A DNA stretch of 28,708 nt. Origin: Candidatus Woesearchaeota archaeon (lineage in GTDB: Archaea; Nanobdellota; Nanobdellia; Pacearchaeales; GW2011-AR1). Of this stretch, positions 541 through 25,112 are shown one piece after another (the first letter of the stretch is position 1; the number at the start of each line of letters is the position of its first letter). The stretch is from contig CAZKAU010000001.1 in NCBI GenBank assembly GCA_964551065.1, positions 1 through 28,708 on the forward strand. Direction: 5' to 3'. The position numbers and the translations under genes are program-made. The notes below the pieces were generated by a model. It had not been told where the DNA came from. It worked only from the letters and a program-made list of their open reading frames with translations, and made no database searches.

Positions 541-879
541 ATGTTTCCAAATTTAGATCCTAAGAAAATGAATGCTTTAATGAAGCAGATGGGCATGGCT
601 CAGACAGAGATTGATGCTTCAAGAGTTATTATTGAGAAAAATGATGGTGGAAAGCTAGTTATCGATAATCCTTCTGTGGTGAAGATAAGAATGCAGGGAC
701 AAGAGTCTTTCCAGATTTCAGGACATGCGGAGGAAGTTGAAGGTTCTGGGTTTGAAAGTGGGATTTCTGAAGAAGATGTCAAGGCAGTTATGGAAAAAAC
801 AGGTGTTTCTGAAGAAAAAGCCAGAGAATCTTTGGAAAAAACAGGCGATTTGGCTGAAGCAATTTTGGAATTATCCTAA
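541..879 (+). CDS. nac: Nascent polypeptide-associated complex protein (archaeal NAC)
   Basis: DPKKMNALMKQMG..EIDASRVII..LVIDNPSV..GQESFQISG NAC domain, plus a C-terminal UBA-like domain (DVKAVMEKTGVSEEKARESLEKTGDLAEAI). Confidence 0.95.
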   Translation: MFPNLDPKKMNALMKQMGMAQTEIDASRVIIEKNDGGKLVIDNPSVVKIRMQGQESFQISGHAEEVEGSGFESGISEEDVKAVMEKTGVSEEKARESLEKTGDLAEAILELS

Positions 880-984
880 TACTTTATTTGTAATGTAATC
901 TTTGGATTTTATTATTATATAATGGTTATAATAGGAAAAATATAAAAAGACCGCTTTATTAATAACTCTTAGTTCTATTTAAAA

Positions 985-1428
985 ATGGAAGAGATAATTG
1001 AGGAAAAGATTAGGGCTGACCATCTCCTTTATGTGAGTTTGAAGTATACCAAGACGTGCGACGTAATTGTTAATCTGCTTCTTAGATGGAGAAGGATGAT
1101 TGAAGCGAGCATAGATGAGATTTTAAAACATAATCACTCGAAATCCAAAAAGAAAGGTGAAATTCCTGCGAGCCCTCTTGCAAAAGATGAAGAAGTTAGG
1201 AAACTTTTCAAAACAGACAAGAATTTTTTGGATGTTGTTGAACTTTATGAGATGCTCAGAAAAATTGAAGACCTTCGAAAAGAGAGAATCGGAGAGTTTA
1301 GAAAAAATGTTACCCTTAGGGTAATGTATAAGGGGGAAGAGATTAACATAAATCTTGATAAATTAAAAGAGTATGCTGCTATGTTGGAAAAATTTATAAG
1401 CACTACTAAACAATTTCTTTCTAAGTAA
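985..1428 (+). CDS. Hypothetical helical protein
   Basis: 147-aa ORF with a TTTATTAA TATA box 22 nt upstream. The ADHLLYVSLKYTKT segment looks conserved, but no function is recognised. Confidence 0.7.
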   Translation: MEEIIEEKIRADHLLYVSLKYTKTCDVIVNLLLRWRRMIEASIDEILKHNHSKSKKKGEIPASPLAKDEEVRKLFKTDKNFLDVVELYEMLRKIEDLRKERIGEFRKNVTLRVMYKGEEININLDKLKEYAAMLEKFISTTKQFLSK

Positions 1429-1469
1429 AATAATTTTACTGGTTAAATTTACGGCCTATAAAAGGTAAA

Positions 1470-2261
1470 ATGAAAAAGTTTATCGTTATAACCTCAGGGA
1501 AAGGGGGCGTTGGAAAAACAACAACTGCTATTAACCTTGGTGCTGCCATAAATCATTTTGGCGGAGATGTTTTGATAATTGATGCAAATCTTTCAACCCC
1601 TAATGTAGGAATTCATCTTAATTCTCCAGAAGTTCCCGTGAATCTTAATCATGTTCTTTTGAAGAAGGCTGACCCTTATGAAGCGGTTTATGAGCATGAG
1701 TCAGGAATGAAGATCATGCCGTCCTCTCTTTCAGTCAAAGAACTTAAGAAAATCAAGACTGACAAGATTCAAGCATTCAAAGAGGAGTTTAAGAAGATTG
1801 CAGATTATGTTATTGTTGACAGTTCGGCAGGGCTTGGTGATGAGGCACTTTCAGTTATTGAAATGGCTGATGAGTTGATTATTGTCACAAATCCCGAAAT
1901 TGCAGCTATCACTGATGCTCTAAAAACAATAAAACTTGCAGAGCATATGAAAATTCCTGTTCTCGGAGTTATTGTTACAAGGGTAAGAAAAGATATGATA
2001 GAAATGCAACCAGGAACAGTTAAGGAAATGTTGGAAGTTCCAATATTGGGAATGGTTCCAGAAGATTTAGTTGTAAAACAAGCACTGAACGAGAAAGATG
2101 CTGTTGTTCACACTCATCCTTGGAGTAAACCTGCAAGGGCTTACAAAGAAATCGGAGCAAGAATAATGGATGTTGATTATGATTCCAGAAGAGACAAGAG
2201 AAGCTTGCTTGATTTGCTTTTTACCAAAAGAAGAGAGTTGTATGAAAAGTACCGGAAATAA
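1470..2261 (+). CDS. minD: MinD/ParA-family ATPase (archaeal MinD-like)
   Basis: Deviant Walker A SGKGGVGKTT, plus IDANLSTPN, YVIVDSSAG and VTNPE..AITDA motifs. Confidence 0.92.
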   Translation: MKKFIVITSGKGGVGKTTTAINLGAAINHFGGDVLIIDANLSTPNVGIHLNSPEVPVNLNHVLLKKADPYEAVYEHESGMKIMPSSLSVKELKKIKTDKIQAFKEEFKKIADYVIVDSSAGLGDEALSVIEMADELIIVTNPEIAAITDALKTIKLAEHMKIPVLGVIVTRVRKDMIEMQPGTVKEMLEVPILGMVPEDLVVKQALNEKDAVVHTHPWSKPARAYKEIGARIMDVDYDSRRDKRSLLDLLFTKRRELYEKYRK

Positions 2262-2269
2262 TTTTTAAT

Positions 2270-2572
2270 ATGGATTCCGAGTTAAGTGATTTTATTGCAG
2301 ATACAAAAAAACATTATAACGAAGGAGTTAAGCCTCTCATTGAAGACGAATTTTATCAAGTTGCTGGTTTTGAACTTGCAAATATAAACTTTCTTTTAAG
2401 AGATCTTGCACCTAAACTCAGAAATTACCACTCAGGAGATCTTTTTATGGCTGCTTCAAGGATGTTGGAGAGAGATTTGAGGGAAGGAACGGATAAACCC
2501 TCTACGAGATTGTTTGAAGCTTATCTTTCTCAGGTTGGATTGGCTATAGAATCAGGAAATACTTTTAGCTAA
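2270..2572 (+). CDS. Hypothetical protein, 100 aa
   Basis: ATG 8 nt after the minD stop; its stop abuts the convergent tRNA-binding gene. No motif recognised. Confidence 0.6.
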   Translation: MDSELSDFIADTKKHYNEGVKPLIEDEFYQVAGFELANINFLLRDLAPKLRNYHSGDLFMAASRMLERDLREGTDKPSTRLFEAYLSQVGLAIESGNTFS

Positions 2573-2935
2573 TTACCCAATTCTGCTTCCTAATTCAATA
2601 TCTTCATCAGGTTGAAGCAAGGAGACTTTACTGTGGTCTTCGGTTGAAGCTGCGAGAAGCATTCCCTGACTCTCAATTCCCTTAAGCATTCTGGGTTTTA
2701 GATTTGAGAAATAAATTATTTTTCTTCCTTCTAATTTTTCTTTTGAATAGAATTCCTTAAGTCCTGCACAGATTGTTCTCTTTCCAATTTCAGGACCAAC
2801 ATCTAAATTTAATTTGTAAAGTTTGTCTGCGTTTGGAATGTCTTCGACTTTTTCAATCTTAGCTACTCTTATGTCGAGTTTCATCCATTCATCAAAATTT
2901 ACGTGTGCTATATTTTCGGGTGTTTCTTTTTCCAT
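2573..2935 (-). CDS. Stand-alone tRNA-binding OB-fold protein (MetRS C-terminal / Trbp111 / CsaA family)
   Basis: F..LDIRVAKI..VEDIPNADKLYKL.LD.G...RTICAGL...NLKPR..KGIESQGMLLAA is the classic tRNA_bind signature. It starts 5 nt after the metG stop. Confidence 0.92.
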   Translation of the reverse strand: MEKETPENIAHVNFDEWMKLDIRVAKIEKVEDIPNADKLYKLNLDVGPEIGKRTICAGLKEFYSKEKLEGRKIIYFSNLKPRMLKGIESQGMLLAASTEDHSKVSLLQPDEDIELGSRIG

Positions 2936-2940
2936 TTTGT

Positions 2941-4392
2941 TTAATTTTTTTCCTCAATCTTTTCAAATAAAATCTTACCTTTTTTAATTTTGTCTTTTCC
3001 AGCTTTTAAGGGAGTTTCAATATCCTTTAGATTTTTTATTTCAAATCCAAATTGATTTGCAATTTCTTCTGATGTTTTTGGAATGAAAGGCCAAAGTATA
3101 ATTGCACTTGCTTTTATTGAATCTGCAAGTTCATATAAAACTTCTGAATCATGTGTTTCCCAAGGTTTCTTGCTTTGCACATATTCATTACACTTATCTA
3201 TGAAAGCGAAAATTTCATTCAACGCTTTGTCAAATTCAAATTTTTTCATTTTGGATTTTACTGAAGAAACTTTCAGTTTTTTGATTAGTTTGTTTTCAGT
3301 TTTCTTTATTCCGTATTTTTCTGCAAGTCCTGCAACACGCCTTGCAAGATTTCCGAGTTTGTCCGCAAGTTCATTGTTGTGTCTTGCGATTAAATCTTTT
3401 TCAGAGAAATCTCCATCTTCTCCTTCGGCAAAAGGGAATTGCCTGCAAACAAAATATCTAATAGCATCTGCGCCGTATTTTTCAACAAGAACTTTTGGAG
3501 AGATTACATTTCCAAGAGACTTTGAAATTTTCTGTCCGTTGAAAGTTAGGAATCCGTGAACAAAAACTGTTTTCGGAAGTTTGTATCCTGCTGATTTTAG
3601 AAATGCGGGCCAGTAAACTGTGTGAAACCATGAATTGTCTTTTCCTAAAAGATGAACTGATGCAGGCCAGTATTCATGGTCTTTTCCAGAACCAGTTAGG
3701 TAATTGAAGAGAGCATCGAACCAAACATAAGTTATGTGTTTTTTGTCAAGAGGGAAAGGTATTCCCCAGTCAAAGCTTGTTCTTGAAATACTCAAATCTT
3801 TTAGACCCTCTTTTACACGATTTCTTATTTCGTTCCTTCTTGCTTCTGGGAGGATAAATTCAGGATGTTTTTCATATAATTCCAAAAGGAATTTTTCGTA
3901 TTTACTCAATCTGAAAAAATAGCTTGGCTCTTTAAGAATTTCAACAGGTCTTTTATGAATTGGACACTCGCCATTTACAAGGTCTTTTTCTGTGTAGTAA
4001 GCTTCACAGCCAGTGCAATAAAATCCTTCATATTCTCCAAGATAGATGTCTCCATTTTTATCACATTTCTTTATTGCCTCTTGAACGAGTTTTTCGTGGT
4101 CCTTGTCTGTTGTTCTTATGAATCGGTCAGGCTCTATATTCAAGGATTTCCAAGCTTCTTGAAATTTCTTTGCAAGTTCATCGACAAATTCTCTTGGATT
4201 TTTTCCGACTTTCTCTGCAGTTTCCTGTATTTTTTTTCCATGCTCGTCAACACCTGTAAGGAATCTAACATCATCTCCGATAAGCTTATGCCATCGGGAT
4301 ATGACATCTGCAACTATCTTTTGATATGCATGACCTATATGAGGCTCTGCATTTGGATAGTCTATTGCTGTTGTAACATAAAATTTTACCAT
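2941..4392 (-). CDS. metG: Methionyl-tRNA synthetase catalytic subunit; short bacterial-like single-knuckle type without the C-terminal tRNA-binding domain
   Basis: FYVTTAIDYPNAEPHIGH, LTGVDEHG.KI, CTGC...CPIH knuckle, LSISR, YVWFDAL and KISKS (KMSKS equivalent). Confidence 0.96.
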   Translation of the reverse strand: MVKFYVTTAIDYPNAEPHIGHAYQKIVADVISRWHKLIGDDVRFLTGVDEHGKKIQETAEKVGKNPREFVDELAKKFQEAWKSLNIEPDRFIRTTDKDHEKLVQEAIKKCDKNGDIYLGEYEGFYCTGCEAYYTEKDLVNGECPIHKRPVEILKEPSYFFRLSKYEKFLLELYEKHPEFILPEARRNEIRNRVKEGLKDLSISRTSFDWGIPFPLDKKHITYVWFDALFNYLTGSGKDHEYWPASVHLLGKDNSWFHTVYWPAFLKSAGYKLPKTVFVHGFLTFNGQKISKSLGNVISPKVLVEKYGADAIRYFVCRQFPFAEGEDGDFSEKDLIARHNNELADKLGNLARRVAGLAEKYGIKKTENKLIKKLKVSSVKSKMKKFEFDKALNEIFAFIDKCNEYVQSKKPWETHDSEVLYELADSIKASAIILWPFIPKTSEEIANQFGFEIKNLKDIETPLKAGKDKIKKGKILFEKIEEKN

Positions 4393-4410
4393 TCTAGTTC
4401 ATAGATTGAA

Positions 4411-4459
4411 CGTATAAAAATCTAACGAAGTAGATGGTTTTTAGAAATGTTTTTATACG
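4411..4459. promoter_or_regulatory. Divergent promoter pair forming a perfect 10-bp inverted repeat (CGTATAAAAA ... TTTTTATACG)
   Basis: Each half contains TTTTTATA about 21 nt from its downstream ATG (4392 on the - strand, 4479 on the + strand). Confidence 0.6.
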
Positions 4460-4478
4460 ATAAAAGATTTTTCTTTAT

Positions 4479-4820
4479 ATGCAGCTTAACATAACTCTTC
4501 TTAGCATTGTTCTGGTAATAATTGCTATCTGGGTTCTTTTGGAAACTAAGAGGTTTAAACACAAAATGGTGGCTATTTTCATAATAATCGTTATTCTGTT
4601 TACTTATTTTAGCTTTAGCGTTGCATTAAGCGGAAAGAAGTTGGATTTATCCACTGTTGACGGAATAAGTCAGGCAGGTGCTGTTTATTTTTCCTGGTTG
4701 GGTTCTGTATTTACTAATGTTAAGACAATTACAGCTAATGCTGTGAAAATGAACTGGGGTGTTGTAAATGAGAACACCACTTTCAATGAGACCCTTTATC
4801 CCACAAATTCTTCTGGCTAG
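4479..4820 (+). CDS. Hypothetical membrane protein with two N-terminal hydrophobic helices
   Basis: 113-aa ORF with two TM-like segments and a leaderless TATA spacing. Confidence 0.75.
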   Translation: MQLNITLLSIVLVIIAIWVLLETKRFKHKMVAIFIIIVILFTYFSFSVALSGKKLDLSTVDGISQAGAVYFSWLGSVFTNVKTITANAVKMNWGVVNENTTFNETLYPTNSSG

Positions 4821-4887
4821 GAAATAGATACTGTGAAATATGTTTTCTATTAGCAAAATTTAAAAAGTGTTTTTCCTTCAGTATTCC

Positions 4888-5274
4888 ATGGCTGAAAAGA
4901 GAGGGAGAAAGAAAACTTCTGCTAAGTCTGCTCCTAAAAGAAAATCAACTTCGAAGAAATCTTCTAAACCTACTGTTAAGCGAGCGAGCTCGAGACCTGT
5001 GAGGGCTACAGCATCCAAGGCCAGAGCTCAGAGAAAGGCTCCTGCGAAGAAGGAGCAGATTAATCCTACAAAGACAAATCTTAGAATTGTTGTGAATAAT
5101 TTTATACTCTTCTTTATTATGTTCCTTTTGTCTTTGGTGTTCACTCAGGTATTTTCAAACTTGTTTGTAGTTAACTTATTTTCAGTTTTGGCTATAATCT
5201 TTGCTTTCATAAGTGTAGCCTTTTTGGTAGCCTTGTTGGTTTTTGTTTTCCTCAAGCTTTTTAGAGAAAGATAA
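4888..5274 (+). CDS. Membrane protein with a Lys/Arg/Ser-rich basic N-terminus and two C-terminal TM helices
   Basis: ATG at 4888 is preferred over the track start at 4867. AEKRGRKKTSAKSAPKRKSTSKKSSK... is followed by two hydrophobic stretches. Confidence 0.75.
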   Translation: MAEKRGRKKTSAKSAPKRKSTSKKSSKPTVKRASSRPVRATASKARAQRKAPAKKEQINPTKTNLRIVVNNFILFFIMFLLSLVFTQVFSNLFVVNLFSVLAIIFAFISVAFLVALLVFVFLKLFRER

Positions 5275-5325
5275 GTATACTTTTGATTCCTTAAATTTAT
5301 TAACTATAAGTGATATTTTTATTTT

Positions 5326-8166
5326 ATGAAAAAAGGAGTTTTGTTTTCGGTAGTCTTTGTTCTTATTCTTGCTTCAATCTTTTCCGTGTTTCAGATTACA
5401 GGTTATGTTACTGTTTCTGTAAGTTCTCTAAATGGTTCCGTTCAGAAAATTTCTGATTCTGTTTACACTAATATTCAGGCTAACGGAAGTACAGATGTTT
5501 TGATTAAGGTTTCTCCCGGAAAGAAGAAAGTTAGAGTGGGATTTCTTACATTTAGCTCAGGATATTTCAATAAGACTGAAGCCGAAAACGAGGTTAAGGC
5601 AGATGTCAAGGGCAAGGTTTCTTATTCAAAAGATGGACTTATTTATGCTAGAATTAATTCCTCCGATCTTGCAAAAATAGAAAATAGCAATAATGTAGGA
5701 TCTGTAACTCCTGAAAGAGTTTTCCATGTAGATTCCCAGGACCCTACTTCTCAGATTAATGTTACTGCTGTTCAAAGTATAATTTATGATGGAGAAAATC
5801 TTACCGGAACGGGGCAGACTGTTTGTGTTATAGATACGGGGATTGATTACAATAATGCTAATTTCGGAAGCTGTTATGGGGACAATAATGTTTCCTCTGG
5901 ATGTAAGATTATAGGAGGATACAATTTCATAAACAATAGCCCTTACCCTCTAGATGATAATGGGCATGGAACCCATGTTGCAGGAATAATTGCCGCTTCA
6001 GGTTCTTTGACAGGAGTTGCACCTGGTGTTAAGATTGTTTCAATAAAAGTTTGTGATTCTTCCGGGTCTTGCAGTGAATCAAATATTCAAAAGGGAATTG
6101 ATTGGTGCGTTAATAATGCAAGCAAATTCAACATAACTGTTATTAGTATGAGTCTTGGAACTCCTCAGCTTTATTCGGGCTATTGCAATTCTGACCCCTT
6201 AGCCCCTTCTATTAATTCGGCTGTTGCAGAAAATATCTCTTTTGTTGTGGCTTCAGGAAATGATGGAAATACCACCGCTATGTCCTCACCAGCATGTGTT
6301 CAGAATGCGACTTCGGTTGGAGATACTTACGTTCAAGATTATTCAGGAACTTTCTCCTGGGGGAGTCCTGTTGTTTGTTCAGATACAAATCCTGTTCAAA
6401 ATCAAATAGTTTGTCACAGTAATAGAGATTCAGCATTAGACCTTCTCGCTCCCGGAGCGTTGATAAATTCAACCTGGTTAAATAGCGGATATCAACTTGA
6501 AGGCGGGACTTCAATGGCTGCGCCTCATGTTTCAGGGGCTATTGCTATACTTAAACAGTATTATGCCCTGAACAATAAAATTCTCAATTCTAGTCAAGCA
6601 GAGCAAGCATTAAATTATACGGGCACTCCGACTTATGATTCTTTGAGTGGGTTGACTTTTCCAAGGATTAATGTTTATTCTGCCTTATTTTATCTGGATA
6701 AAGATTCCCCGGTTGTTAGTTTAGATTTTCCTCTGAATAATTCGATTATTCCTGAATCAAATCAAACTTTTGAGTGTAATTCTACGGACCTTCTTTTGAA
6801 TAATGTAACTTTGAAAATTTGGAATTCAACGGGCGTTTATTATAATGCTTCTGAAAATTCCGGTGGTCAGAGTAATTCAAGTTCGTTTAATGTGAGTATG
6901 GTTTATGGAAAATATTTCTGGAATTGTTTCTATGGAGATTCTCAGAATAATACTGGATTTTCATACAGTAATTATACCTTGATGGTTTCGCCCGGAGTGA
7001 TATACTTAAGTCCAGAGAATAACACATACTCTAATCAAAACGAGACTTTCTTGTGCAATTCGACATATTTCGCTTCAGGTGTAAATCTTTCCAATGTTAC
7101 TTTTGATATTTTCAATTCAAGCGCTCTTTTGCATAATGAGACTGTAAATGTTTCAGGTTCTTCAAATTTGACTTCTTTCAATTATAATTTTACAAAAGAA
7201 GGAAATTATATTTGGAGATGCTATTTTTATTCCAATGACAGTAATATCACTTTTTCAGATAATTATACTTTTATTTACGATTTAACTTCTCCAAGAGTTA
7301 ATCTTTCTCTTCCTGTGAATAACACTGTTTTGGATGGAGGTACGCAGGCAGTTTCTTTTGCTTACAATTCAACAGACAATTATGCCTTGCAAAAATGCAG
7401 TTTAGAACTTAATGGCCAGAATGTTTCTTTGGACTCTAATTTAACTTCAGGAGAGAATAATTTTAGTTATTCTGTTTCTCCTGGAACTTACTTGTGGAAT
7501 GTTAACTGTAGTGATTTTGCGGGAAATTTTAACTCCAGCCAATCAAGGGTGCTTACCGTGAATGAGGTCCAATCTTCTCCCTCTTCATCGTCTCCTTCTT
7601 CGCCTTCTGTTCCAGTAACGAGTCCAGGAGTTTCTTCTTATGTTCAAGATAATATCTCTCAGGGTTATTCTGTAGTGCTAGTTCCCGGAGCTGAGAAGTC
7701 ATTTGTTTTATCCGGAGAAAATCATATTTTATCTGTAAATAGTATTTCGGGACCAAGCGCAAATATCACTGTGAGGAGCGATCCGATCCATTTTGTTCTT
7801 TATGTGGGTCAGGATAAATATCTTAATTTATCTTCTCCAGACTATTATGATTTATATGTGAAGCTCAACGCAATAAGCAATGGGGTTGCAAATATTACTA
7901 TAAAAGAGCTTACATCAAACAACAGGATTTTTCATACCCTTGCTTTACCGGTTTCAAATAATACTATAGATACTAAAAATAATGGATTAAATTCAGGTCA
8001 AATATATTTGTTATTTGGAATTCTTGCTGTTATCCTTGTAATTGCAATAATCATTGTTAGTTTAGGAAGTAAGGGTAAAAAGAAAAATAAGAGAAAATCC
8101 ACCAGAACCAAGAAAAGAAAGGTAAGAAAAAATTCTTCTAAGAAGAGAACTAAGAGGAGAAAATAA
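5326..8166 (+). CDS. Membrane-anchored subtilisin-family (S8) serine protease with Ig-like repeats
   Basis: Catalytic triad motifs VIDTG, HGTHVAG and GTSMAAPHV, with oxyanion-hole ASGN. It also has a signal/anchor, three repeats starting SP.V....P.NN[ST], a Ser/Pro linker, many N-x-S/T sequons, a C-terminal TM helix and a polybasic tail. Confidence 0.93.
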   Translation: MKKGVLFSVVFVLILASIFSVFQITGYVTVSVSSLNGSVQKISDSVYTNIQANGSTDVLIKVSPGKKKVRVGFLTFSSGYFNKTEAENEVKADVKGKVSYSKDGLIYARINSSDLAKIENSNNVGSVTPERVFHVDSQDPTSQINVTAVQSIIYDGENLTGTGQTVCVIDTGIDYNNANFGSCYGDNNVSSGCKIIGGYNFINNSPYPLDDNGHGTHVAGIIAASGSLTGVAPGVKIVSIKVCDSSGSCSESNIQKGIDWCVNNASKFNITVISMSLGTPQLYSGYCNSDPLAPSINSAVAENISFVVASGNDGNTTAMSSPACVQNATSVGDTYVQDYSGTFSWGSPVVCSDTNPVQNQIVCHSNRDSALDLLAPGALINSTWLNSGYQLEGGTSMAAPHVSGAIAILKQYYALNNKILNSSQAEQALNYTGTPTYDSLSGLTFPRINVYSALFYLDKDSPVVSLDFPLNNSIIPESNQTFECNSTDLLLNNVTLKIWNSTGVYYNASENSGGQSNSSSFNVSMVYGKYFWNCFYGDSQNNTGFSYSNYTLMVSPGVIYLSPENNTYSNQNETFLCNSTYFASGVNLSNVTFDIFNSSALLHNETVNVSGSSNLTSFNYNFTKEGNYIWRCYFYSNDSNITFSDNYTFIYDLTSPRVNLSLPVNNTVLDGGTQAVSFAYNSTDNYALQKCSLELNGQNVSLDSNLTSGENNFSYSVSPGTYLWNVNCSDFAGNFNSSQSRVLTVNEVQSSPSSSSPSSPSVPVTSPGVSSYVQDNISQGYSVVLVPGAEKSFVLSGENHILSVNSISGPSANITVRSDPIHFVLYVGQDKYLNLSSPDYYDLYVKLNAISNGVANITIKELTSNNRIFHTLALPVSNNTIDTKNNGLNSGQIYLLFGILAVILVIAIIIVSLGSKGKKKNKRKSTRTKKRKVRKNSSKKRTKRRK

Positions 8167-8609: not shown

Positions 8610-9305
8610 TTATCCTTTTATTGTTGTTCCTATGAATGGTTTTCCCTGAAGAAAATTGTCAAGCTGCTCCATATCTTTTCCCAGAATGTAACTTGGAATT
8701 TTTTTATCAAGAATCATTTTTGATGCAGTTTGATCTATCACAAAATGTTGTCCGGGTTTGAATTCAATTTTGTTCGCCAAATCATAAAGTTCCTGCCAGG
8801 TTATCTCTTTTATGAGTTTTGTGTTCTTGAATTTCTTAGGATTTTTGTTGTACAATCCCGGAACGTCTGTAAGATTTATGAAGTCTGCTTTGAAATGCTC
8901 TGCTACTTCCACAGAAGTTGAATCAGAGGTTTCATGATTTCCATAACTCAGGGCTCCGCAGAAAACAACATCTTGTTTTTTGAGGTATTTTTTTATTTCA
9001 TTCATCTTATGCGGGATTCCTCTTTCAGGGTCTATTCCAAAAAGGTAATTCATAAATCTTGCATTCATTCTTGTTGCCGAGATTCCTGCAAATCCCTGAG
9101 ACTTTTCGTCAGCACCCAAACCAGATAATGCGGTAATATATTTTCTTGCAGTCGTTCCTCCCCCACAAATGATAATAAATTTGTAATGATCTGTGTTTTT
9201 TAAAAGAACATCCCTAAAGCTTTGAAGAAATTTTAAATCTATTTTTTCTGGAACTATTAAGCTTCCACCCAAACTTAGAACTTTGATTGGTTTCGCCTCT
9301 TTCAT
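8610..9305 (-). CDS. pyrH: UMP kinase, archaeal type
   Basis: VLSLGGSLI, IICGGG.TARKYI, GISATRMNA, TSDS, NLTDVPGLY.K.P and DQTAS motifs. Confidence 0.93.
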   Translation of the reverse strand: MKEAKPIKVLSLGGSLIVPEKIDLKFLQSFRDVLLKNTDHYKFIIICGGGTTARKYITALSGLGADEKSQGFAGISATRMNARFMNYLFGIDPERGIPHKMNEIKKYLKKQDVVFCGALSYGNHETSDSTSVEVAEHFKADFINLTDVPGLYNKNPKKFKNTKLIKEITWQELYDLANKIEFKPGQHFVIDQTASKMILDKKIPSYILGKDMEQLDNFLQGKPFIGTTIKG

Positions 9306-15264: not shown

Positions 15265-17160
<1,896 letters not shown>

Positions 17161-17161
17161 A

Positions 17162-17440
17162 ATGGCAAAGAAATCTAAAATTCAAACACCTGACTGGATT
17201 TTGAAAGGAGAAGAGGAAGAAGTTCCAAAGAAGTCAAAGGGAAAAACTTTCAAGTTAAGGAGATGCCCTAAATGTGGAAGTGACAATTTGCAGATAGTTC
17301 TTACAGGAGAAGAGGGAAAAAGCTCAGGAGAATGGGAATGTAAGAAATGTAGATGGACCGGGAAAGATGTTAAGGAAGATGAACTCACTGAAGATGAATT
17401 TATGAAATATTTAGATGAAAAAGGGGAGGAAGTTGCATAA
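17162..17440 (+). CDS. Small zinc-ribbon protein (CPKC...CKKC) with an acidic C-terminus, inside the gyrase operon
   Basis: ATG 1 nt after the gyrB stop; its TAA overlaps the gyrA ATG (TAATG). 92 aa. Confidence 0.85.
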
Positions 17441-19974
17441 TGGCAGAAGATGAAGAAATAGAAGAAAGTATGGATGAAGAAGAACTTGAAGAGTCTGAGG
17501 ACGAAGATGATTTTGAAGAAGATTCAGATAAGAAATCTTCGGGTAAGGATAAACAAACAAGTCTTGTAGAAGAGAAAGGAATAGTTAATACTGAAATCTC
17601 TGGAGAAGTAAAGAAAGCATATCTTGATTATGCTATGTCTGTAATTGTTTCGAGGGCTATTCCTTCGATTGAAGATGGTATGAAACCTGTTCAAAGGAGA
17701 ATTTTGTATTCTATGAATCTTCTTGGATTGCAAAGCAATAAGCAAACTAAAAAGTGTGCCAGAATTGTTGGAGATGTTCTTGGTAAATACCATCCTCATG
17801 GAGATACTGCGGTTTACGAAGCTTTGGTAAGAATGGCTCAACCTTTTTCATTAAGATATCCTCTTGTTTTTGGTCAGGGTAATTTTGGAAGTATAGATGG
17901 TGATTCTGCAGCGGCTATGCGTTATACTGAAGCTAAGATGGCTGCAATTTCAAATGAGATTCTCGAGGATATTGAAAAGGAAACTGTGAAATTTGAACCA
18001 AATTTTGATAACTCTTTGAAAGAGCCGGTTCTACTTCCCGCAAAAATTCCAAATTTAATAATTAATGGTGCAACCGGAATCGCTGTTGGTATGGCGACTA
18101 ATATCCCTCCCCATAATCTTACAGAAATTGCTGATGCAATAATTGCCTATACCAAGAATGAAAATATTTCAATTGATGAACTTTGTGAAATTGTTTCCGG
18201 TCCAGACTTTCCAACAGGAGGAGTTGTTTCGGGAGATATGAATGAGATGTATAAGAGAGGTAAGGGAAGATTAATCCTTAGAGGAAAGGTTACAACTGAA
18301 GCTGCAAAGAATAAAGAGAGACTTGTGATCACCGAGATCCCCTATGTTCTCAATAAATCTACACTTGTTGAACAGATTGCAAAATTGATTCAGGATAAAA
18401 AACTCAGAGATGTTTCAGATTTAAGAGATGAATCTTCAAAAGGAAAAATCAGAATAGTTATTGAATTGAAGAAAGGAGCTAACTCCAAGTTTGTAAGTAA
18501 TGCTCTTTACAAGTATACCAGGCTTCAAGATTCTTTCAATGCAAATTTCCTTGCGCTTGTCGGAAATCAGCCAAGGGTCCTTAATTTGAAAAATATAATT
18601 GAAGAATATGTAAAATACAGAAAACAGATTATCACAAAAAGAACAGAGTATGATCTGAGAAAAGCAAAAGAGAGATTGGAAATTGTTGAAGGCTTGATGA
18701 TTGCCTTGAAGAATATTGATGAAATTATTTCTATAATAAAGAAATCCAGAGAAGAAGCAGCTGAAAATTTGATGAAAAAATTCAAATTTACAAAGAGGCA
18801 GGCAGAAGCTATTCTTGAAACAAGATTGAGACAATTGAGTGCTCTGGAACAAGATAAGCTTAAGGAAGAGCATCAGAAATTGAAAAACAGTATTGAAGAA
18901 TTTGAGAAGATTCTTTCAGATATGAAAGAGGTTTTGAAGATAATTGTTAAAGAAGTTAAAGCCATGAAAGAGAAATATGGTGGAGAGAGAAGAACACAGG
19001 TTTTGAAGAGGATTGGAGAAATTAAAGAGAAAGACCTTGTTCAGAAGAAAAATGTTATTGTAACTGTAACTGAGAAAGGATATTGCAAGAGAATTGATAC
19101 TGCAACTTACAAAGAACAGAAGAGAGGAGGCAGGGGAGTTACAGGAAGCGGTCTTGCGACAGGAGATTTCGTAAAACAGATAATTGATTGCTCTACTCAT
19201 GATTACCTCATGTTCTTTACTTCTAAGGGGAGAGTTCTTTTCCTCAAGGCGTATGAAATTCCTGAGGCTGATAGATACAGTAAGGGAAAAGCTTTGGTAA
19301 ACCTTATAGGAATAAAGGATGAGAGAATAACAAATATTATTTCAGTTACAGACTTTAATGATTATTTATTCATGGCTACAAGAAAAGGACAGGTTAAGAA
19401 AATTTCGCTTGAACATTTCTCAAAACCAAGAGCTTCGGGAATTAGAGCAATAACCTTGCCTCCCGACAATTCAGATATGTTGGTTGATGTTCAGATAATC
19501 AAACCTAAAGAAGAGGTTCTTCTTGCAACAAAGCATGGGCAGGCAATAAGATTTAACAGTGATGATGTAAGAGCGATGGGGAGAGCGAGCTATGGTGTCT
19601 CAGGAATAAAACTTGGAAAAGATGATGAAGTTGTAAGTTTAGAGATTTTGAGAACAAAGGAAGTTATGACTATAACTGAAAAAGGTTATGGGAAGAGAAG
19701 TGCGGTTAATGACTACAGGAAAACTGCAAGAAGTGGAAAGGGCGTAATTAATATGAAAGTGTCCGAAAAGACAGGGGATATTGTAAATACAGTTTCAATA
19801 AATCCTGAAGATAATATTATCATAACTACTGCAAAAGGGATGGTTATCAGGACCAACTTGAATAACATAAGAGTTATGGGAAGAGCGACACAAGGTGTAA
19901 GAATTGTAAAGCTTCAGGATGAAGATTTTGTTACGGATATTGTTAAAGTTCATGATTTGAATGGAGACGAGTAA
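17440..19974 (+). CDS. gyrA: DNA gyrase subunit A with an acidic N-terminal extension
   Basis: [29 protein letters not shown], catalytic AAAMRYTE, GyrA-box QKRGGRG and six CTD blades. GGAGG SD-like sequence upstream. Confidence 0.98.
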
Positions 19975-20652: not shown

Positions 20653-21462
20653 TTAGAATTTTAACCTGCTTTGTTTTTCAAATTTAGGAAACCTTCCGTC
20701 TTGGCTCTGATTCCAGGCAGGACAAATTTGCTTGTAGGAACACCAATCACAAAGTCTTGAAGGGTTTGTTGGAAATTCAGTAGTTGATTCAATGGCTCTT
20801 ATTAATTCCACAGTTTCTTTCTTTAACTGTTTAAGCTGTTCTTCTGTTCTCCTTGATTCCAGTCTTTTGTTAAAATTAAGATAGTGCCAAATAAGACGGA
20901 CTTCTGTAGCATTATCAAACATTTCTCTTATTGCTATTGAATAAAGTGCAAGCTGCCTATCTTCATCAACCTTGTCCTGGGGTGGAAGGGTGTTTGAGGT
21001 TTTATAATCATGAATTTCATATTCACCTGTTTCTAAGTTATAACATAGCCTATCAATGAATCCTTTTAATTTGTAATTTCCTTCTTCATCTAAATCTATG
21101 AAAATTTCTTTTTCCAGAGCCAGGGTGTTTTCCTGAAAAGGTGCATATCTATTGTAGTAATCTATTAGAAACTGAACCCCTTTATTGTAATAGTCGTTAT
21201 CAGTCATCCCTTTTTTCGGGATTAGGAAATCTTTCCTTTCAGCCAGCCAATGCCTTGAATAGAAAAGCATAACATCATCAAGCGAAGGAAGGTTCCCCTT
21301 TTTAGCTTCCTCATAAATCCATTCAAGAGTTAAATGGACCATGGTTCCAAGATGAGCTTCAATAGTTCTTTCTTTTTCTGGTATGTGATCTATGTAACGA
21401 AATTTATATCTCTTTTTGCATTGTTCAAAAGTACTTAGTCTTGAATGAGAATATATTGTCAT
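20653..21462 (-). CDS. Stand-alone RecB/AddB/Cas4-like PD-(D/E)XK nuclease with an Fe-S staple
   Basis: YSHSRLSTFEQC, G..VH..LE, GFIDRL, HDYKT, QLALY and C-terminal CDWCSYKQIC (1+3 Cys pattern). Confidence 0.9.
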   Translation of the reverse strand: MTIYSHSRLSTFEQCKKRYKFRYIDHIPEKERTIEAHLGTMVHLTLEWIYEEAKKGNLPSLDDVMLFYSRHWLAERKDFLIPKKGMTDNDYYNKGVQFLIDYYNRYAPFQENTLALEKEIFIDLDEEGNYKLKGFIDRLCYNLETGEYEIHDYKTSNTLPPQDKVDEDRQLALYSIAIREMFDNATEVRLIWHYLNFNKRLESRRTEEQLKQLKKETVELIRAIESTTEFPTNPSRLCDWCSYKQICPAWNQSQDGRFPKFEKQSRLKF

Positions 21463-21560
21463 TTTCTCTTTTAACCTAAACTTCGAAATGAGGAAGGGTT
21501 ATAAATTTTGTTATAAATTTAATATGAAAAATTTAAAAACCTACTCTCCTTTAACATTTG

Positions 21561-22466
21561 ATGAATAAGGTGAGCGAATCTCGTGTTTTTGATAAGGTTT
21601 TTTACATCGCCTTTGCAATTGTTATTCTTGTTTTGATTTCAATTACTGTTTATGCTGCTCTTCCGGGAGCTACTGCTTCCAATCCGGGGCATTCTGCAGA
21701 TCAGATTTACATCAGTTATGGAAGTAATTATCTTACTCTTCAAAATGCTGTTAGCGGGAATTATCTTACGAGAACCAAGTCTGAAGTAGTGTCCTTGCTT
21801 ACACCTGCAAATTCCGATAATAATTTTCCAACAATGACTCCCTATCATTTGGCAAGTCAAATTTTAATTCAGGTACCTTCCTCTTCAGGGGTTAATTATA
21901 CTATGACTCTTCAGGAAGCTGTAGATAATAATGTTTTTGTGAATGGGGCTAGTACAAGCTATACCACTTCTCTGCCTGTAGGGGGACAGTATGCAAGTAA
22001 CGTTAATGTTATTGGTGGAGATGGGACTGCTCAAACATTTGAACAAGCAATAGTAACAGGGAATTTTGCAGCTCCAGTTATATGGAATAGTACTGCATGG
22101 AAATCTACCTATCCTGTAACCTGTCCTACTTCTAGTTGGACAAGAACGGTTTATTGTCAAAAAGAGGTTTTGGGTGCATATATCACAGTTGATGATTCCT
22201 ATTGCGTAGATGCGGGAGTAAAGCCAGTAAGTTCTACGACTGTTACCTGTACTTGGCATGTTTCTAGTTTCACTTGCCCTATGCAAAATCCTTCTGGGCA
22301 GATATATCCTAGCTGTCCTACAGCAGGAACAACCTGTAATACTTGGGGTGCAGGAGGATCCTGCCAGGTAGGAACCTGTAAGTATAATTGTGCATGGACG
22401 GGGATATGTTCTTCTGGATACAATGGGGGGAGTTATAGTTGTTATCCTTCCGCTCCTACAATCTAA
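21561..22466 (+). CDS. Surface protein: N-terminal anchor, three internal repeats, an ADAMTS-type TSP1-like module and a Cys-rich C-terminus
   Basis: ATG at 21561, with a TATA box 21 nt upstream. Repeats H.A.QI...TLQ.A, and W..TC..RTVYC..VDDSYC..KP..C. Confidence 0.75.
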   Translation: MNKVSESRVFDKVFYIAFAIVILVLISITVYAALPGATASNPGHSADQIYISYGSNYLTLQNAVSGNYLTRTKSEVVSLLTPANSDNNFPTMTPYHLASQILIQVPSSSGVNYTMTLQEAVDNNVFVNGASTSYTTSLPVGGQYASNVNVIGGDGTAQTFEQAIVTGNFAAPVIWNSTAWKSTYPVTCPTSSWTRTVYCQKEVLGAYITVDDSYCVDAGVKPVSSTTVTCTWHVSSFTCPMQNPSGQIYPSCPTAGTTCNTWGAGGSCQVGTCKYNCAWTGICSSGYNGGSYSCYPSAPTI

Positions 22467-22512: not shown

Positions 22513-24093
22513 ATGAATGCTTTTTTGGGTAAAGTTAATTCCATTATAAAGAAATTTGAAGATTATAAGATAGACCCTTTAATTCTTGGATTGTATGTTG
22601 TCTGTGTAATTCTGGTACGCGATTTGTTGGAGAACATATCAAATTTTTCATATCACTCAATTGAACCTGGAATTTTACTTCTTGTAGAGTATCCTCTTTG
22701 GTATCTGACAATAATTCTATTTTTTGTTATTATAGCTTATATTTTTACGAAAGAAAATATAACTAAAATAATGAAGGTCTTTTCATTTTTACTTCCAATT
22801 ATCTGGCTTGCTCCTTTGATTGATTTATTTCTAACAAAAGGTGCTGTTATGGGATTTGTAAATATTCGTTCGTGGAGCGAGCTTCCTTTCAAGGCTATCT
22901 TGTGGTTACAACATTCTCCGATTCACCTACCAGGAATAACTTGGGGTTTAATGATTGAATTAACATTAATCTTGATTGGACTTTCATTTTATGTTTATGC
23001 AAAAACCAAGAGTATCCTAAAAGCTATCTTTTCATTTATAGCATTTTATCTTGTAACTTTTCTGATGGGGGCACCTTCGTTAGCTACTCTTTTGCTGGCA
23101 ACTGTAAATAAGAGTTGGATTAGTCTGACAGCATTTACTTACAACTTTAACCCTGAAGTCGTAGTTTCTCTTGCTCTTTTCTTTATATTAACAATATCTC
23201 TCGTCATATTCTTTTGCATTTATGACCGGAAGAAATGTATCAATTTCTTCAAATATTTATCCATTACAAGGGTTATCCATTATGTCCTGATACTTAATCT
23301 GGGGACAGCTTTTGCAGTAATCTCTCATCTGAAGGAAATTCATATGTCTTTTCTTACTATTTTTATCCTAATTCTTGCAAATCTGGTTGTTGTCTTTTCA
23401 TGGATTTTTGCTAAGAATGTGAATGATTATTTTGATAAGAAAGAAGATTCTCTTTCTAACAAAGGCAATCCATTTATTAGTAAACAATTCACCAGAAGTG
23501 AACTTATTGTTATTTATGGGATGGTTCTTCTGATGTCTCTCGGAATTTCATATTTGATAGGCTACGCATTTTTCTTCTTTAATATTTTGACATTAAGTGT
23601 AAGCTTTTTGTACTCCTGTCCTCCTATGAGGTTGAAAAGAATACTCTTTTTCTCTCATCTGTGCATCGGATTGGCTTCAGGCATTGTGCTATTGCAGGGA
23701 TTTTCCCTTGTTGGGAATATCATGCCTCTTAATAATCTTAACCTGAAATTATTTTTATGGATAACTCTTGCTTTCTTTCTTGGATCTCATCTTAAAGATA
23801 TAAAAGATTACAAAGGGGATAAAAATGCAGGCATAAAAACTCTTCCTACTGTTTTTGGAGAGAGAAACGCAAAGATCATGATCACTCTTATTCTTTCGAT
23901 ACTGTTCCTCTTTTCTGTTATCTTGTTTGGTTTAATTTATCTTGTTCCGTTTGCGATTTTATGTGCTTTGGGTGCGTCTTATTTTTTAAACAGAAAAAAT
24001 TACAAAGAAGTTTATGTATTCCTAATTTATTTTTCTTTCTTTGTTGTTGTAGCTATATTCCTTTTGAGAAGTTTAATTTCACAAATTGTTTAA
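22513..24093 (+). CDS. UbiA-family prenyltransferase fused to an extra N-terminal multi-pass membrane domain
   Basis: NDYFDKKED...NKGNP, YSCPPMRLKR and DIKDYKGDKNAGIKTLP motifs in the C-terminal half; 526 aa in total. Confidence 0.85.
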   Translation: MNAFLGKVNSIIKKFEDYKIDPLILGLYVVCVILVRDLLENISNFSYHSIEPGILLLVEYPLWYLTIILFFVIIAYIFTKENITKIMKVFSFLLPIIWLAPLIDLFLTKGAVMGFVNIRSWSELPFKAILWLQHSPIHLPGITWGLMIELTLILIGLSFYVYAKTKSILKAIFSFIAFYLVTFLMGAPSLATLLLATVNKSWISLTAFTYNFNPEVVVSLALFFILTISLVIFFCIYDRKKCINFFKYLSITRVIHYVLILNLGTAFAVISHLKEIHMSFLTIFILILANLVVVFSWIFAKNVNDYFDKKEDSLSNKGNPFISKQFTRSELIVIYGMVLLMSLGISYLIGYAFFFFNILTLSVSFLYSCPPMRLKRILFFSHLCIGLASGIVLLQGFSLVGNIMPLNNLNLKLFLWITLAFFLGSHLKDIKDYKGDKNAGIKTLPTVFGERNAKIMITLILSILFLFSVILFGLIYLVPFAILCALGASYFLNRKNYKEVYVFLIYFSFFVVVAIFLLRSLISQIV

Positions 24094-25112
24094 ATTGAGG
24101 AGAGATACTTATTCAATGCCTCGATGCTTATTGCTGTACTTAAATCTTCAGAACCATAGTAGTACGATGCCCAACTTGGAAGATATTCAAAATAAATTTC
24201 TTTAGACCAATGGCCGTCACGGTTTTGAGTGCTAATAAGATAAGTTACAGCTCTGTCTACTTCTTTTCCATGGTAGTCATAATTGATTAGAGTGTTTATT
24301 GCTAGGGCCGTATTCAGGGGGCTCCCGAAAGAACCGTTTGGTTGCTGATTTGCTAATATTTTCTTTATTATCTCATTCCGGTTTTCTCCAAGGCAGGAGA
24401 TATTATTACTGAATGCTTTTGAAACAGTATAGTAAAGAACAAAACGGTTAGGATAGTATAAGGAACAATTTTGATTGGAGGATATTACTTTTTTAAGGTA
24501 GGCGCACACGGAATTTTCATTGCTTTTTGTGTACATCACAACATTTGCATTTATTACACAATCGATATTGTTTCCACTTTCACTATTATTTAACCAAGTG
24601 TAATAGAGACTTTCATTATTCTTATTTTGTTCCAAAACTTGTAAATTATCCTGGAAGGATTTATTATACATTCTCAGAATAAATGAAGCAACGGAAGTAT
24701 CTTCAGAATCCGGAGGAACAAAGTTATGATTTGAATTGTTTTCAGACCAATAGTTCCAAAGTCCGGGATATTCCTGATCACTTAACAAGAAGTTCAAGCC
24801 TTTGAGGGTTATATTTTGAACTTCTTTATTTTTTATGTCTTTTATAGAATATAAAGTTAGAGATGTTACAAAATTAGAGCTGTCATAAGAACATTCATTT
24901 AAGGAATCATCACCGCAGACGTATGCTTTAAATTCTCCATTGTTTAACTGATCGCTGTAAAGGAATAGAATTCCTTTGTTTATGGAATTGTTAATTTCGC
25001 TTAAGTTATTCTGGTTTTTTGGTTCGGAAAAACTGAGAATTGCCAGAACCATAATTGTTAAGGCTATTAATGAGAAAATAATTTTTCTGAAGTTTTCCTC
25101 TTTTATCTTCAT
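24090..25112 (-). CDS. Prenyltransferase/squalene-cyclase-repeat protein (single-domain class II terpene-cyclase-like) with an N-terminal anchor
   Basis: QW-type repeats (L.SDQ..NGEF, LLSDQ..PGLW, ILANQQPNGSF, YLISTQNRDGHW), PDSEDTS in place of the DxDDT motif, and C-terminal YYGSEDLSTA. Confidence 0.75.
   Translation of the reverse strand: MKIKEENFRKIIFSLIALTIMVLAILSFSEPKNQNNLSEINNSINKGILFLYSDQLNNGEFKAYVCGDDSLNECSYDSSNFVTSLTLYSIKDIKNKEVQNITLKGLNFLLSDQEYPGLWNYWSENNSNHNFVPPDSEDTSVASFILRMYNKSFQDNLQVLEQNKNNESLYYTWLNNSESGNNIDCVINANVVMYTKSNENSVCAYLKKVISSNQNCSLYYPNRFVLYYTVSKAFSNNISCLGENRNEIIKKILANQQPNGSFGSPLNTALAINTLINYDYHGKEVDRAVTYLISTQNRDGHWSKEIYFEYLPSWASYYYGSEDLSTAISIEALNKYLSSI

Follow-up and report, generated by a model that had tools for sequence, protein, structure and literature searches.

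MstE of Scytonema (PDB 6SBB-6SBG) belongs to the class II terpene cyclases and acts after a prenyl chain has been joined to a head group bearing no diphosphate; its substrate is 5-geranylgeranyl-3,4-dihydroxybenzoate. NctPC and ChrPC are published prenyltransferase-cyclase fusions, in which the cyclase domain, of MstE-like type, closes rings in a geranylgeranyl chain once it has been joined to tryptophan in peptides (Hubrich et al. 2024, Chem 10:3224, as covered in review PMC13290415). The drimane synthases AsDMS (a bacterial drimenol synthase; PDB 9MHS, 9M7D-F) and AstC (fungal; PDB 22TY/22TZ), each fused to a HAD domain, use farnesyl diphosphate (FPP) directly, and the roles of their catalytic residues have been described (AsDMS, PMC12365925; AstC, PMC13244436). 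Here we consider a neighbouring pair of genes in a 28,708-nucleotide stretch of archaeal DNA (contig CAZKAU010000001.1; hereafter, the window): one for a UbiA-family prenyltransferase, and one for a class II terpene cyclase of a single domain. Such pairs are conserved or fused in many uncultivated microbes, which, from sequence comparison, points to a candidate and previously undescribed route to ring-containing isoprenoid lipids. Our literature search found no paper on such a cyclase, or on a UbiA-cyclase pair, in DPANN archaea.

The open reading frames (ORFs) confirm what the original prediction had said of the locus, namely that the two genes converge and overlap by four base pairs. Their features are as follows:

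22513..24093, plus strand: gene for a long UbiA-family prenyltransferase of 526 amino acids (aa), from the ORF and Pfam UbiA.
22513..23298, plus strand: N-terminal polytopic membrane domain (the N-domain) of the UbiA protein, aa 1-262, with about six transmembrane helices, from conservation and an AlphaFold model.
23422..23448, plus strand: first Asp-rich motif, NDYFDKKED (N304-D-x-x-D308-x-x-x-D312), intact.
23797..23820, plus strand: second Asp-rich motif, DIKDYKGD (D429-x-K-D432-x-x-G-D436), intact.
24090..24093: TTAA, where the stop codons of the convergent genes overlap.
24090..25112, minus strand: gene for a class II terpene cyclase with one domain, 340 aa, predicted to be membrane-anchored, from the ORF, family profile and fold.
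24696..24710, minus strand: catalytic motif DSEDT of the cyclase, aa 135-139, from alignment to AsDMS and AstC.
25029..25082, minus strand: N-terminal hydrophobic signal-anchor helix of the cyclase, aa 11-28, IIFSLIALTIMVLAILSF, following a net-positive N-terminus.

Three of these features had gone unremarked in the original prediction: the N-domain, the cyclase membrane anchor, and a change from Asp to Glu at the general-acid position of the cyclase.

By family profile and modelled fold, the minus-strand protein is a single-domain class II terpene cyclase, which bears out the earlier assignment. Pfam gives only sub-threshold matches (SQHop_cyclase_C, squalene-hopene cyclase, at 23.5 bits against a cut-off of 26.1; also TED), and PF28380, AstC-like_C, is the label in the precomputed Pfam table. 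When a profile is built from 18 family members, it matches the AsDMS cyclase domain from end to end (E 1.6e-15; query positions 31-314), as well as AstC (E 1e-6), squalene-hopene cyclase (E 5e-6) and, marginally, MstE (E 0.06). The AlphaFold model (pLDDT 91.7) adopts the alpha6-alpha6 barrel fold, and its best 35 Foldseek matches in the PDB are all class II terpene cyclases, including AsDMS (TM-score 0.74, E 4.5e-13), MstE (0.72), and the monodomain cyclases 8paj/8pak (0.70). An alternative identity as the TED domain of alpha-2-macroglobulin or complement proteins was rejected; the fold matches are far weaker (E >6e-5, root-mean-square deviation >13 Å). The likeness to the cyanobacterial MstA/MstE system that had been proposed for the pair therefore holds for the cyclase fold and falters for its sequence, which by profile is nearer to the beta domain of AstC and drimenol synthase than to MstE.

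Alignment to AsDMS and AstC places the catalytic residues. D135 corresponds to the base (AstC D271, AsDMS D331), and E137, a carboxylate though not Asp, occupies the general-acid position (AsDMS D333, AstC D273); N190 aligns with AstC N324, and Y220 with AstC Y361 and AsDMS Y427. Across the family the motif is DxDD(T): D135 is found in 141 of 141 members, and Asp at position 137 in 137 of them. N190 is invariant (alignment A2), position 220 is Tyr in 123/141, and the aromatic positions W119, Y121, and W122 are conserved. The diphosphate-binding residues of AsDMS are R368, R370, and R415 (PMC12232559); at the corresponding positions, the window protein has G180, N182 (where most of the family has Asp), and L218. 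Because these Arg residues are not conserved, a prenyl diphosphate is an unlikely substrate for the cyclase, and for the same reason we infer that prenylation precedes cyclisation.

The plus-strand protein matches Pfam UbiA (PF01040) over aa 282-504 (112.3 bits against a cut-off of 34.2; E 3e-32). Both Asp-rich motifs, already reported as intact, prove invariant across 21 relatives (alignment A3), and both fall in K/R-rich loops that are predicted, by crude hydropathy, to be cytoplasmic. It reaches none of the NCBIfam equivalog cut-offs; the best score is for chlorophyll synthase (72 bits against 313), and the models for digeranylgeranylglyceryl phosphate (DGGGP) synthase fail by wide margins (53.5 against 353, 48.4 against 296, and 26 against 278 bits). 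Among proteins of solved structure, its closest matches are chlorophyll synthase (E 2e-11), and AfUbiA and MjDGGGPS (both near E 1e-7). Proteins of the same architecture form a family of 490-545 aa, with members named as Kaiserbacteria, Aminicenantes, and WOR-3 bacteria. DGGGP synthase (e.g., PDB 6M31) shares the UbiA fold, the Asp-rich motifs, and weak sequence similarity (E 7e-8), but it is a single-domain protein of about 280 aa, whereas the N-domain makes the window protein twice as long. Because of the low NCBIfam scores, the extra 262-aa domain, and the full-length bacterial relatives, the window UbiA is, on sequence grounds, no ordinary DGGGP synthase; the original prediction had counted grouping with those enzymes as evidence against itself.

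The N-domain occurs in both archaeal and bacterial long UbiA proteins. It retains a set of conserved residues (R36, E40, S43, P101, D104, Y115, G145, E149, Y160, Y179, R253, and H256), and its AlphaFold model has a pLDDT of 81.4 and a pTM of 0.82. Relatives of known structure or family were not found: the best Pfam match is 16 bits, under the cut-off; the best profile match among PDB sequences has E 0.5; and the best Foldseek match in the PDB has E 0.45, with TM-scores <=0.26. A crude topology, from hydropathy and the positive-inside rule, places the N-terminus inside, followed by the six N-domain helices, and the C-terminus of the UbiA domain outside; in this prediction, the conserved polar residues of the N-domain gather toward the outer face. 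A domain kept in archaea and bacteria, and without a structural relative in the PDB, may represent a new membrane function. (In L035, positions 7497-7790, and also in L036, the long UbiA gene is directly followed by a second N-domain-like ORF, truncated where the contig ends, which could represent a tandem duplicate or the domain on its own. Here and below, L-numbers denote loci of relatives, and P-numbers protein representatives of the cyclase family.)

As judged from gene order and gene fusion, the pairing of UbiA and cyclase is not chance. Three arrangements of the adjoining genes are found, across at least seven lineages that have diverged deeply. A long UbiA gene followed by a co-directional, nearly abutting cyclase gene is found in L003/L017/L018 (a Nanoarchaeia metagenome-assembled genome and relatives), in a second group (L006/L007/L021), in marine TARA contigs with an archaeal RLI gene (L042/L043), and in a 651-kb contig (L045). 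The window pair is convergent, as are those of L046 and of L002/L019, where the UbiA is short. Identity across paired lineages is only 28-66% for UbiA and 42-53% for the cyclase, so adjacency has outlasted long divergence and at least two rearrangements. By this comparison, the genes converge in the window through local rearrangement of a pair that otherwise is co-directional, with UbiA first. A test for co-evolution of UbiA and cyclase across five lineages (only 10 pairs) gave no clear signal, with a Pearson correlation of 0.63 (p 0.05) and a Spearman correlation of 0.13.

Fusions tell the same story as synteny. An exhaustive profile search for the cyclase family returned 2,861 cluster representatives at E <=1e-3, including 770 at E <=1e-30; most are monodomain proteins of 300-360 aa, and fusions are many. 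Among the top 150 family representatives, 24 are multidomain, and seven of these contain a UbiA domain: P0065, P0068, P0072, and P0144, with UbiA first; P0120 and P0188, with the cyclase first; and P0114, in which N-domain, UbiA, and cyclase form one 831-aa chain. The original prediction had called for a check on co-occurrence, and had allowed that adjacency of convergent genes could be coincidental; recurrent synteny and natural fusions answer the first and contradict the second. (Elsewhere in the family, the cyclase is fused to a sulfotransferase, as in L015, positions 1163-3019, and P0058; to a cytochrome P450, as in P0090; or, in P0046, to a weak Trp-DMAT-like ABBA prenyltransferase region. 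Stand-alone sulfotransferases adjoin the cyclase in L011 and L032.)

Where the cyclase resides is indicated by several sequence signals. In the AlphaFold model, the anchor helix covers residues 2-28. Of 148 short family representatives, 25 carry a signal anchor or lipobox. Positions 74, 185, 203, 216, and 240 are cysteine in 88-100% of the anchored members, as against 3-38% of the others. A neighbour-joining tree groups the anchored, Cys-bearing proteins in a single clade of about 40, holding 33 of the 35 Cys-type sequences, including the window protein. Moreover, in P0114, which has the same cysteines, the cyclase directly follows the last UbiA helix, whose C-terminus is predicted to lie outside. 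These anchors and lipoboxes, clade-specific cysteines, single clade, and fusion geometry make an extracytoplasmic cyclase the most likely arrangement, and the archaeal cyclases probably are disulfide-bonded proteins outside the cytoplasm.

Exported-clade cyclases without a UbiA neighbour still adjoin isoprenoid genes. For example, L039 (positions 1987-6873; also L040) contains, in order, genes for a polyprenyl synthase, a B12-binding radical SAM enzyme, and a lipoprotein-type cyclase, with convergent genes for Lgt and an ICMT/PEMT-like methyltransferase; the cyclase here sits in an isoprenoid cluster that lacks UbiA. In L046 (positions 720-4921), which does have a UbiA-like gene, an exported-type cyclase gene converges with a gene for a distant, 290-aa UbiA-like protein missed by the precomputed Pfam table; genes for a polyprenyl synthase and an AttH/CrtC-like protein (carotenoid hydratase family) come after the pair.

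These observations (family membership, fold, catalytic residues, conserved adjacency, fusions, export signals, and clade-specific cysteines) suggest a model, to which we give somewhat better than even credence: the pair functions as a single module, and its product is a membrane-bound, cyclised isoprenoid: a prenyl lipid that has been cyclised, or a compound like a meroterpenoid. In this model, UbiA, its Asp-rich motifs at the cytoplasmic face, would transfer a polyprenyl chain from a polyprenyl diphosphate to an acceptor that probably bears no diphosphate itself. The lipid product would remain in the membrane and reach the outer face, perhaps with the assistance of the N-domain. There the cyclase, held through the N-terminal helix and with disulfides probably lending it stability, would protonate the terminal C=C of the prenyl tail through the acid at position 137, helped by N190 and Y220 and with D135 as base; this presumes that the Glu137 enzyme is fully active. 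The tail would then fold into rings without cofactor, metal, or energy source. Class II cyclases need none of these, so cyclisation outside the cell is chemically feasible. By analogy, prenylation followed by cyclisation has precedents in MstE, NctPC, and ChrPC. Within the reach of sequence analysis, the findings support the earlier suggestion that the pair is a candidate system for a meroterpenoid or cyclised lipid. A broader proposal, that ultra-small archaea and some uncultivated prokaryotes make polycyclic isoprenoid lipids outside the cell by means of this pair, is tentative, and we consider it rather doubtful.

Several points weigh against the model of one functional module. We know of no precedent for an extracytoplasmic terpene cyclase, and the topology proposed here is read from sequence signals only. 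The 28.7-kb window contains neither an acceptor-forming gene nor a gene for a polyprenyl diphosphate synthase. The closest UbiA relative (L004/L005, 55-59% identity) has no cyclase. No cyclase gene adjoins the long UbiA genes of Kaiserbacteria, Aminicenantes, and L035/L036, whose neighbours belong to no informative family; the role of UbiA can therefore be independent of the cyclase. Finally, the four members with a residue other than Asp at position 137 (Glu in the window protein, P0095, and P0134; Gly in P0133) all belong to the exported clade, which could mean either tolerance or relaxed catalysis. In SsDMS, the D303E variant served to trap an intact, uncyclised FPP complex (PMC12232559). 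This suggests that the variant is strongly impaired in SsDMS, and the window enzyme may therefore be slow or altered.

Two of these points can be qualified. The Glu change may be tolerated, because it recurs with the rest of the catalytic network intact: all four variants retain N190 and Y220. As for L004, it shares with L045 the gene order ligase, TBP, Cys-rich protein, UbiA, (cyclase), MCM, with only the cyclase absent; because the loci otherwise are syntenic, the absence is a loss. No cyclase remnant was found between the UbiA and MCM genes of L004 at E <=1. (In L004, positions 5874-7197, and also in L005, N-domain matches fall in two overlapping frames, with residues 41-128 or thereabouts missing. 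The L004/L005 module looks decayed or remodelled.)

Other explanations deserve consideration. In one, which we regard as unlikely, UbiA prenylates a secreted peptide or protein, possibly a Cys-rich one encoded next to it, and the cyclase then cyclises the attached chain, much as in NctPC and ChrPC, whose target is peptide tryptophan. The neighbour in question is this:

21558..22466, plus strand: gene for a secreted Cys-rich protein directly upstream of the UbiA gene; a possible, unproven associate.

Cytoplasmic bacterial members of the cyclase family (Desulfobacteraceae, Pyrinomonadaceae, and others) sit in natural-product clusters. Some of these clusters resemble those for RiPPs, peptides synthesised on ribosomes and modified post-translationally, with radical SAM/SPASM proteins, PqqD-like chaperones, an HprK-like protein, a nucleotidyltransferase, and an ABC exporter; in some, a LynF/TruF/PatF-like peptide prenyltransferase is encoded directly upstream of the cyclase. 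Others contain ABC-2/Wzt transporters, an acyltransferase-P450 fusion, PhyH, a sulfotransferase, and UbiA. L031 encodes two NHLP-type leader peptides (positions 7066-7347 and 7413-7688, both minus strand), each with a GG end followed by a Cys-rich core, between radical SAM/SPASM genes and a cytoplasmic family member. The prenylate-then-cyclise logic of these bacterial proteins is of an already published kind. Secreted Cys-rich proteins also are encoded beside the pair in several archaeal lineages. However, no precursor peptide, PqqD-like, or radical SAM gene lies near the pair in the window or near other archaeal pairs with a long UbiA, and we know of no peptide prenylation by UbiA-family enzymes. 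Moreover, such Cys-rich proteins are common in these genomes, and homology between those of different lineages could not be detected.

There is a radical SAM-domain protein, however, at L002, the locus with a short UbiA: the short UbiA gene (positions 2659-3357), convergent with the cyclase gene, adjoins a gene for a 1,797-aa protein with glycosyltransferase 2, polysaccharide deacetylase, B12-binding, radical SAM, and SPASM domains, on the P0002 contig (JGI, 67.8 kb). The Cys-rich protein of the window matches no family. It has a homologue upstream of UbiA in L004/L005 (BLASTP E 1e-7; cluster c13) and a similar protein in L045; secreted Cys-rich neighbours of other archaeal UbiA-cyclase loci show no detectable homology between lineages. 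A common third gene was considered and rejected, as the window protein matches only that of L004/L045, and not those of L003 or L001.

In a second explanation, to which we give little credence, the order of reactions is reversed: the class II cyclase makes a bicyclic prenyl diphosphate, and UbiA either acts as a class I synthase or transfers the cyclised group. The direct use of FPP by AsDMS and AstC, the closest characterised relatives, would fit, as would the documented action of UbiA-type diterpene synthases on ent-copalyl diphosphate made by a class II enzyme, in the pairing with PtmT2 (PMC10301674). Polyprenyl synthase genes adjoin the cyclase in L039 and L046. But in place of the Arg residues that bind diphosphate in AsDMS, the window cyclase has Gly, Asn, and Leu; the export signals and clade cysteines imply that the cyclase would not meet cytoplasmic prenyl diphosphates; and the bacterial relatives appear to act after prenyl transfer.

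A third explanation, in our estimate no likelier than the second, is that the exported cyclase-like protein no longer is an enzyme, and that it binds isoprenoids at the cell surface, for example to capture host lipids for reuse by UbiA. The predicted export signals and surface anchor are compatible with this, every departure from Asp at the acid position lies within the exported clade, and such organisms generally are thought to depend on host lipids (for DPANN gene content, see PMC8204110). Against it, about 90% of the exported clade retains DxDD, D135 is present in all members, the four variants keep N190 and Y220, and Glu still is able to donate a proton. The P0114 fusion also suits a sequential pair of enzymes better than it does a binding protein. 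Finally, it is very improbable that the UbiA protein is an ordinary archaeal DGGGP synthase and the cyclase-like gene its unrelated neighbour: the window genes are convergent, and so not co-transcribed, and UbiA-family enzymes are common in archaea, but adjacency in at least seven diverged lineages, natural fusions, DGGGPS scores far below cut-offs, the extra domain, and full-length bacterial relatives all speak against this.

The genomic setting is archaeal. The window (GC about 34%) encodes NAC, a split methionyl-tRNA synthetase, S28e, archaeal UMP kinase (PyrH), eIF2-gamma, and gyrase A and B, along with a subtilase and a PD-(D/E)XK nuclease; eIF2-gamma, NAC, S28e, and the archaeal PyrH establish its origin. 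The nearest relatives of both the UbiA protein and the cyclase are records labelled Nanoarchaeia or Nanoarchaeota, in keeping with the assumption of a DPANN source. The window contains no isoprenoid gene other than the pair, and none for supply of a dihydroxybenzoate (aromatic) acceptor. An amino-acid-kinase gene (8610..9305) was considered as an isopentenyl phosphate kinase and rejected (38 bits against a cut-off of 120 for the IPK model); it encodes the archaeal UMP kinase, scoring 165.8 bits where the cut-off is 158.

Some other genes of the window are worth noting. The methionyl-tRNA synthetase (2573-4392, minus strand) is split into a 483-aa catalytic and anticodon-binding protein followed by a separate gene for a 120-aa tRNA-binding domain. 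Bacterial-type gyrase B and A genes (15268-19974, plus strand), in otherwise archaeal surroundings, flank a 102-aa ORF with a weak match to an IS1595-type zinc ribbon. The nuclease (20653-21462, minus strand) is a stand-alone PD-(D/E)XK or Cas4-like protein (E 1.6e-35), with no CRISPR-associated genes nearby among the ORFs scanned.

DPANN archaea usually are described as unable to build their own membrane lipids. If the broader proposal, of polycyclic isoprenoid lipids made outside the cell, is true, the cyclase would be the first terpene cyclase outside the cytoplasm, and the pathway the first in these archaea to lead to cyclic-terpenoid lipids. The conserved two-enzyme module would give them, and their host interface, a self-made specialised lipid, and the product might modify membranes much as sterols or hopanoids do, in organisms thought to be without lipid synthesis. 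Terpene cyclisation would have moved outside the cytoplasm, a chemically plausible shift for class II cyclases, which need only a proton.

How, then, does the pair compare with known systems? In the platencin pathway, PtmT2 and a UbiA-type ent-atiserene synthase likewise bring together a class II cyclase and a UbiA-superfamily protein. However, PtmT2 is a soluble beta-gamma didomain enzyme that acts on geranylgeranyl diphosphate, and its UbiA-type partner is a class I cyclase, whereas the window cyclase is monodomain, predicted to be exported, and without diphosphate-binding residues.

MstE, at about 350 aa, likewise consists of a beta-domain cyclase standing alone, its fold is similar, and its prenylate-then-cyclise logic is that proposed here. 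The sequence similarity is marginal, MstE is soluble and cytoplasmic, and the window has no aromatic-acceptor genes. The mst prenyltransferase is of the UbiA type.

NctPC and ChrPC, as described (PMC13290415), resemble the window pair in coupling a prenyltransferase to a monodomain cyclase that acts on the prenyl group just attached. The prenyltransferases of NctPC and ChrPC are soluble, of ABBA or trans-IDS-like type, and modify tryptophan in peptides; that of the window is an integral-membrane UbiA protein with an extra domain. The window pair also has no RiPP genes near it, and its cyclase is predicted to be exported.

AsDMS and AstC are the closest relatives in sequence and fold. They share with the window cyclase a single alpha6-alpha6 barrel without a gamma domain and the acid-activating Asn/Tyr, and with its family the acid/base pair of the Asp-x-Asp type. 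The motif is DxDTT in AsDMS and AstC, DxDD(T) in the family of the window protein, and DSEDT in the window protein itself, which lacks both the HAD domain and the diphosphate-binding Arg residues, and instead has an N-terminal membrane anchor and clade-specific cysteines. The partner differs as well: a phosphatase for AsDMS and AstC, and a UbiA prenyltransferase for the window cyclase.

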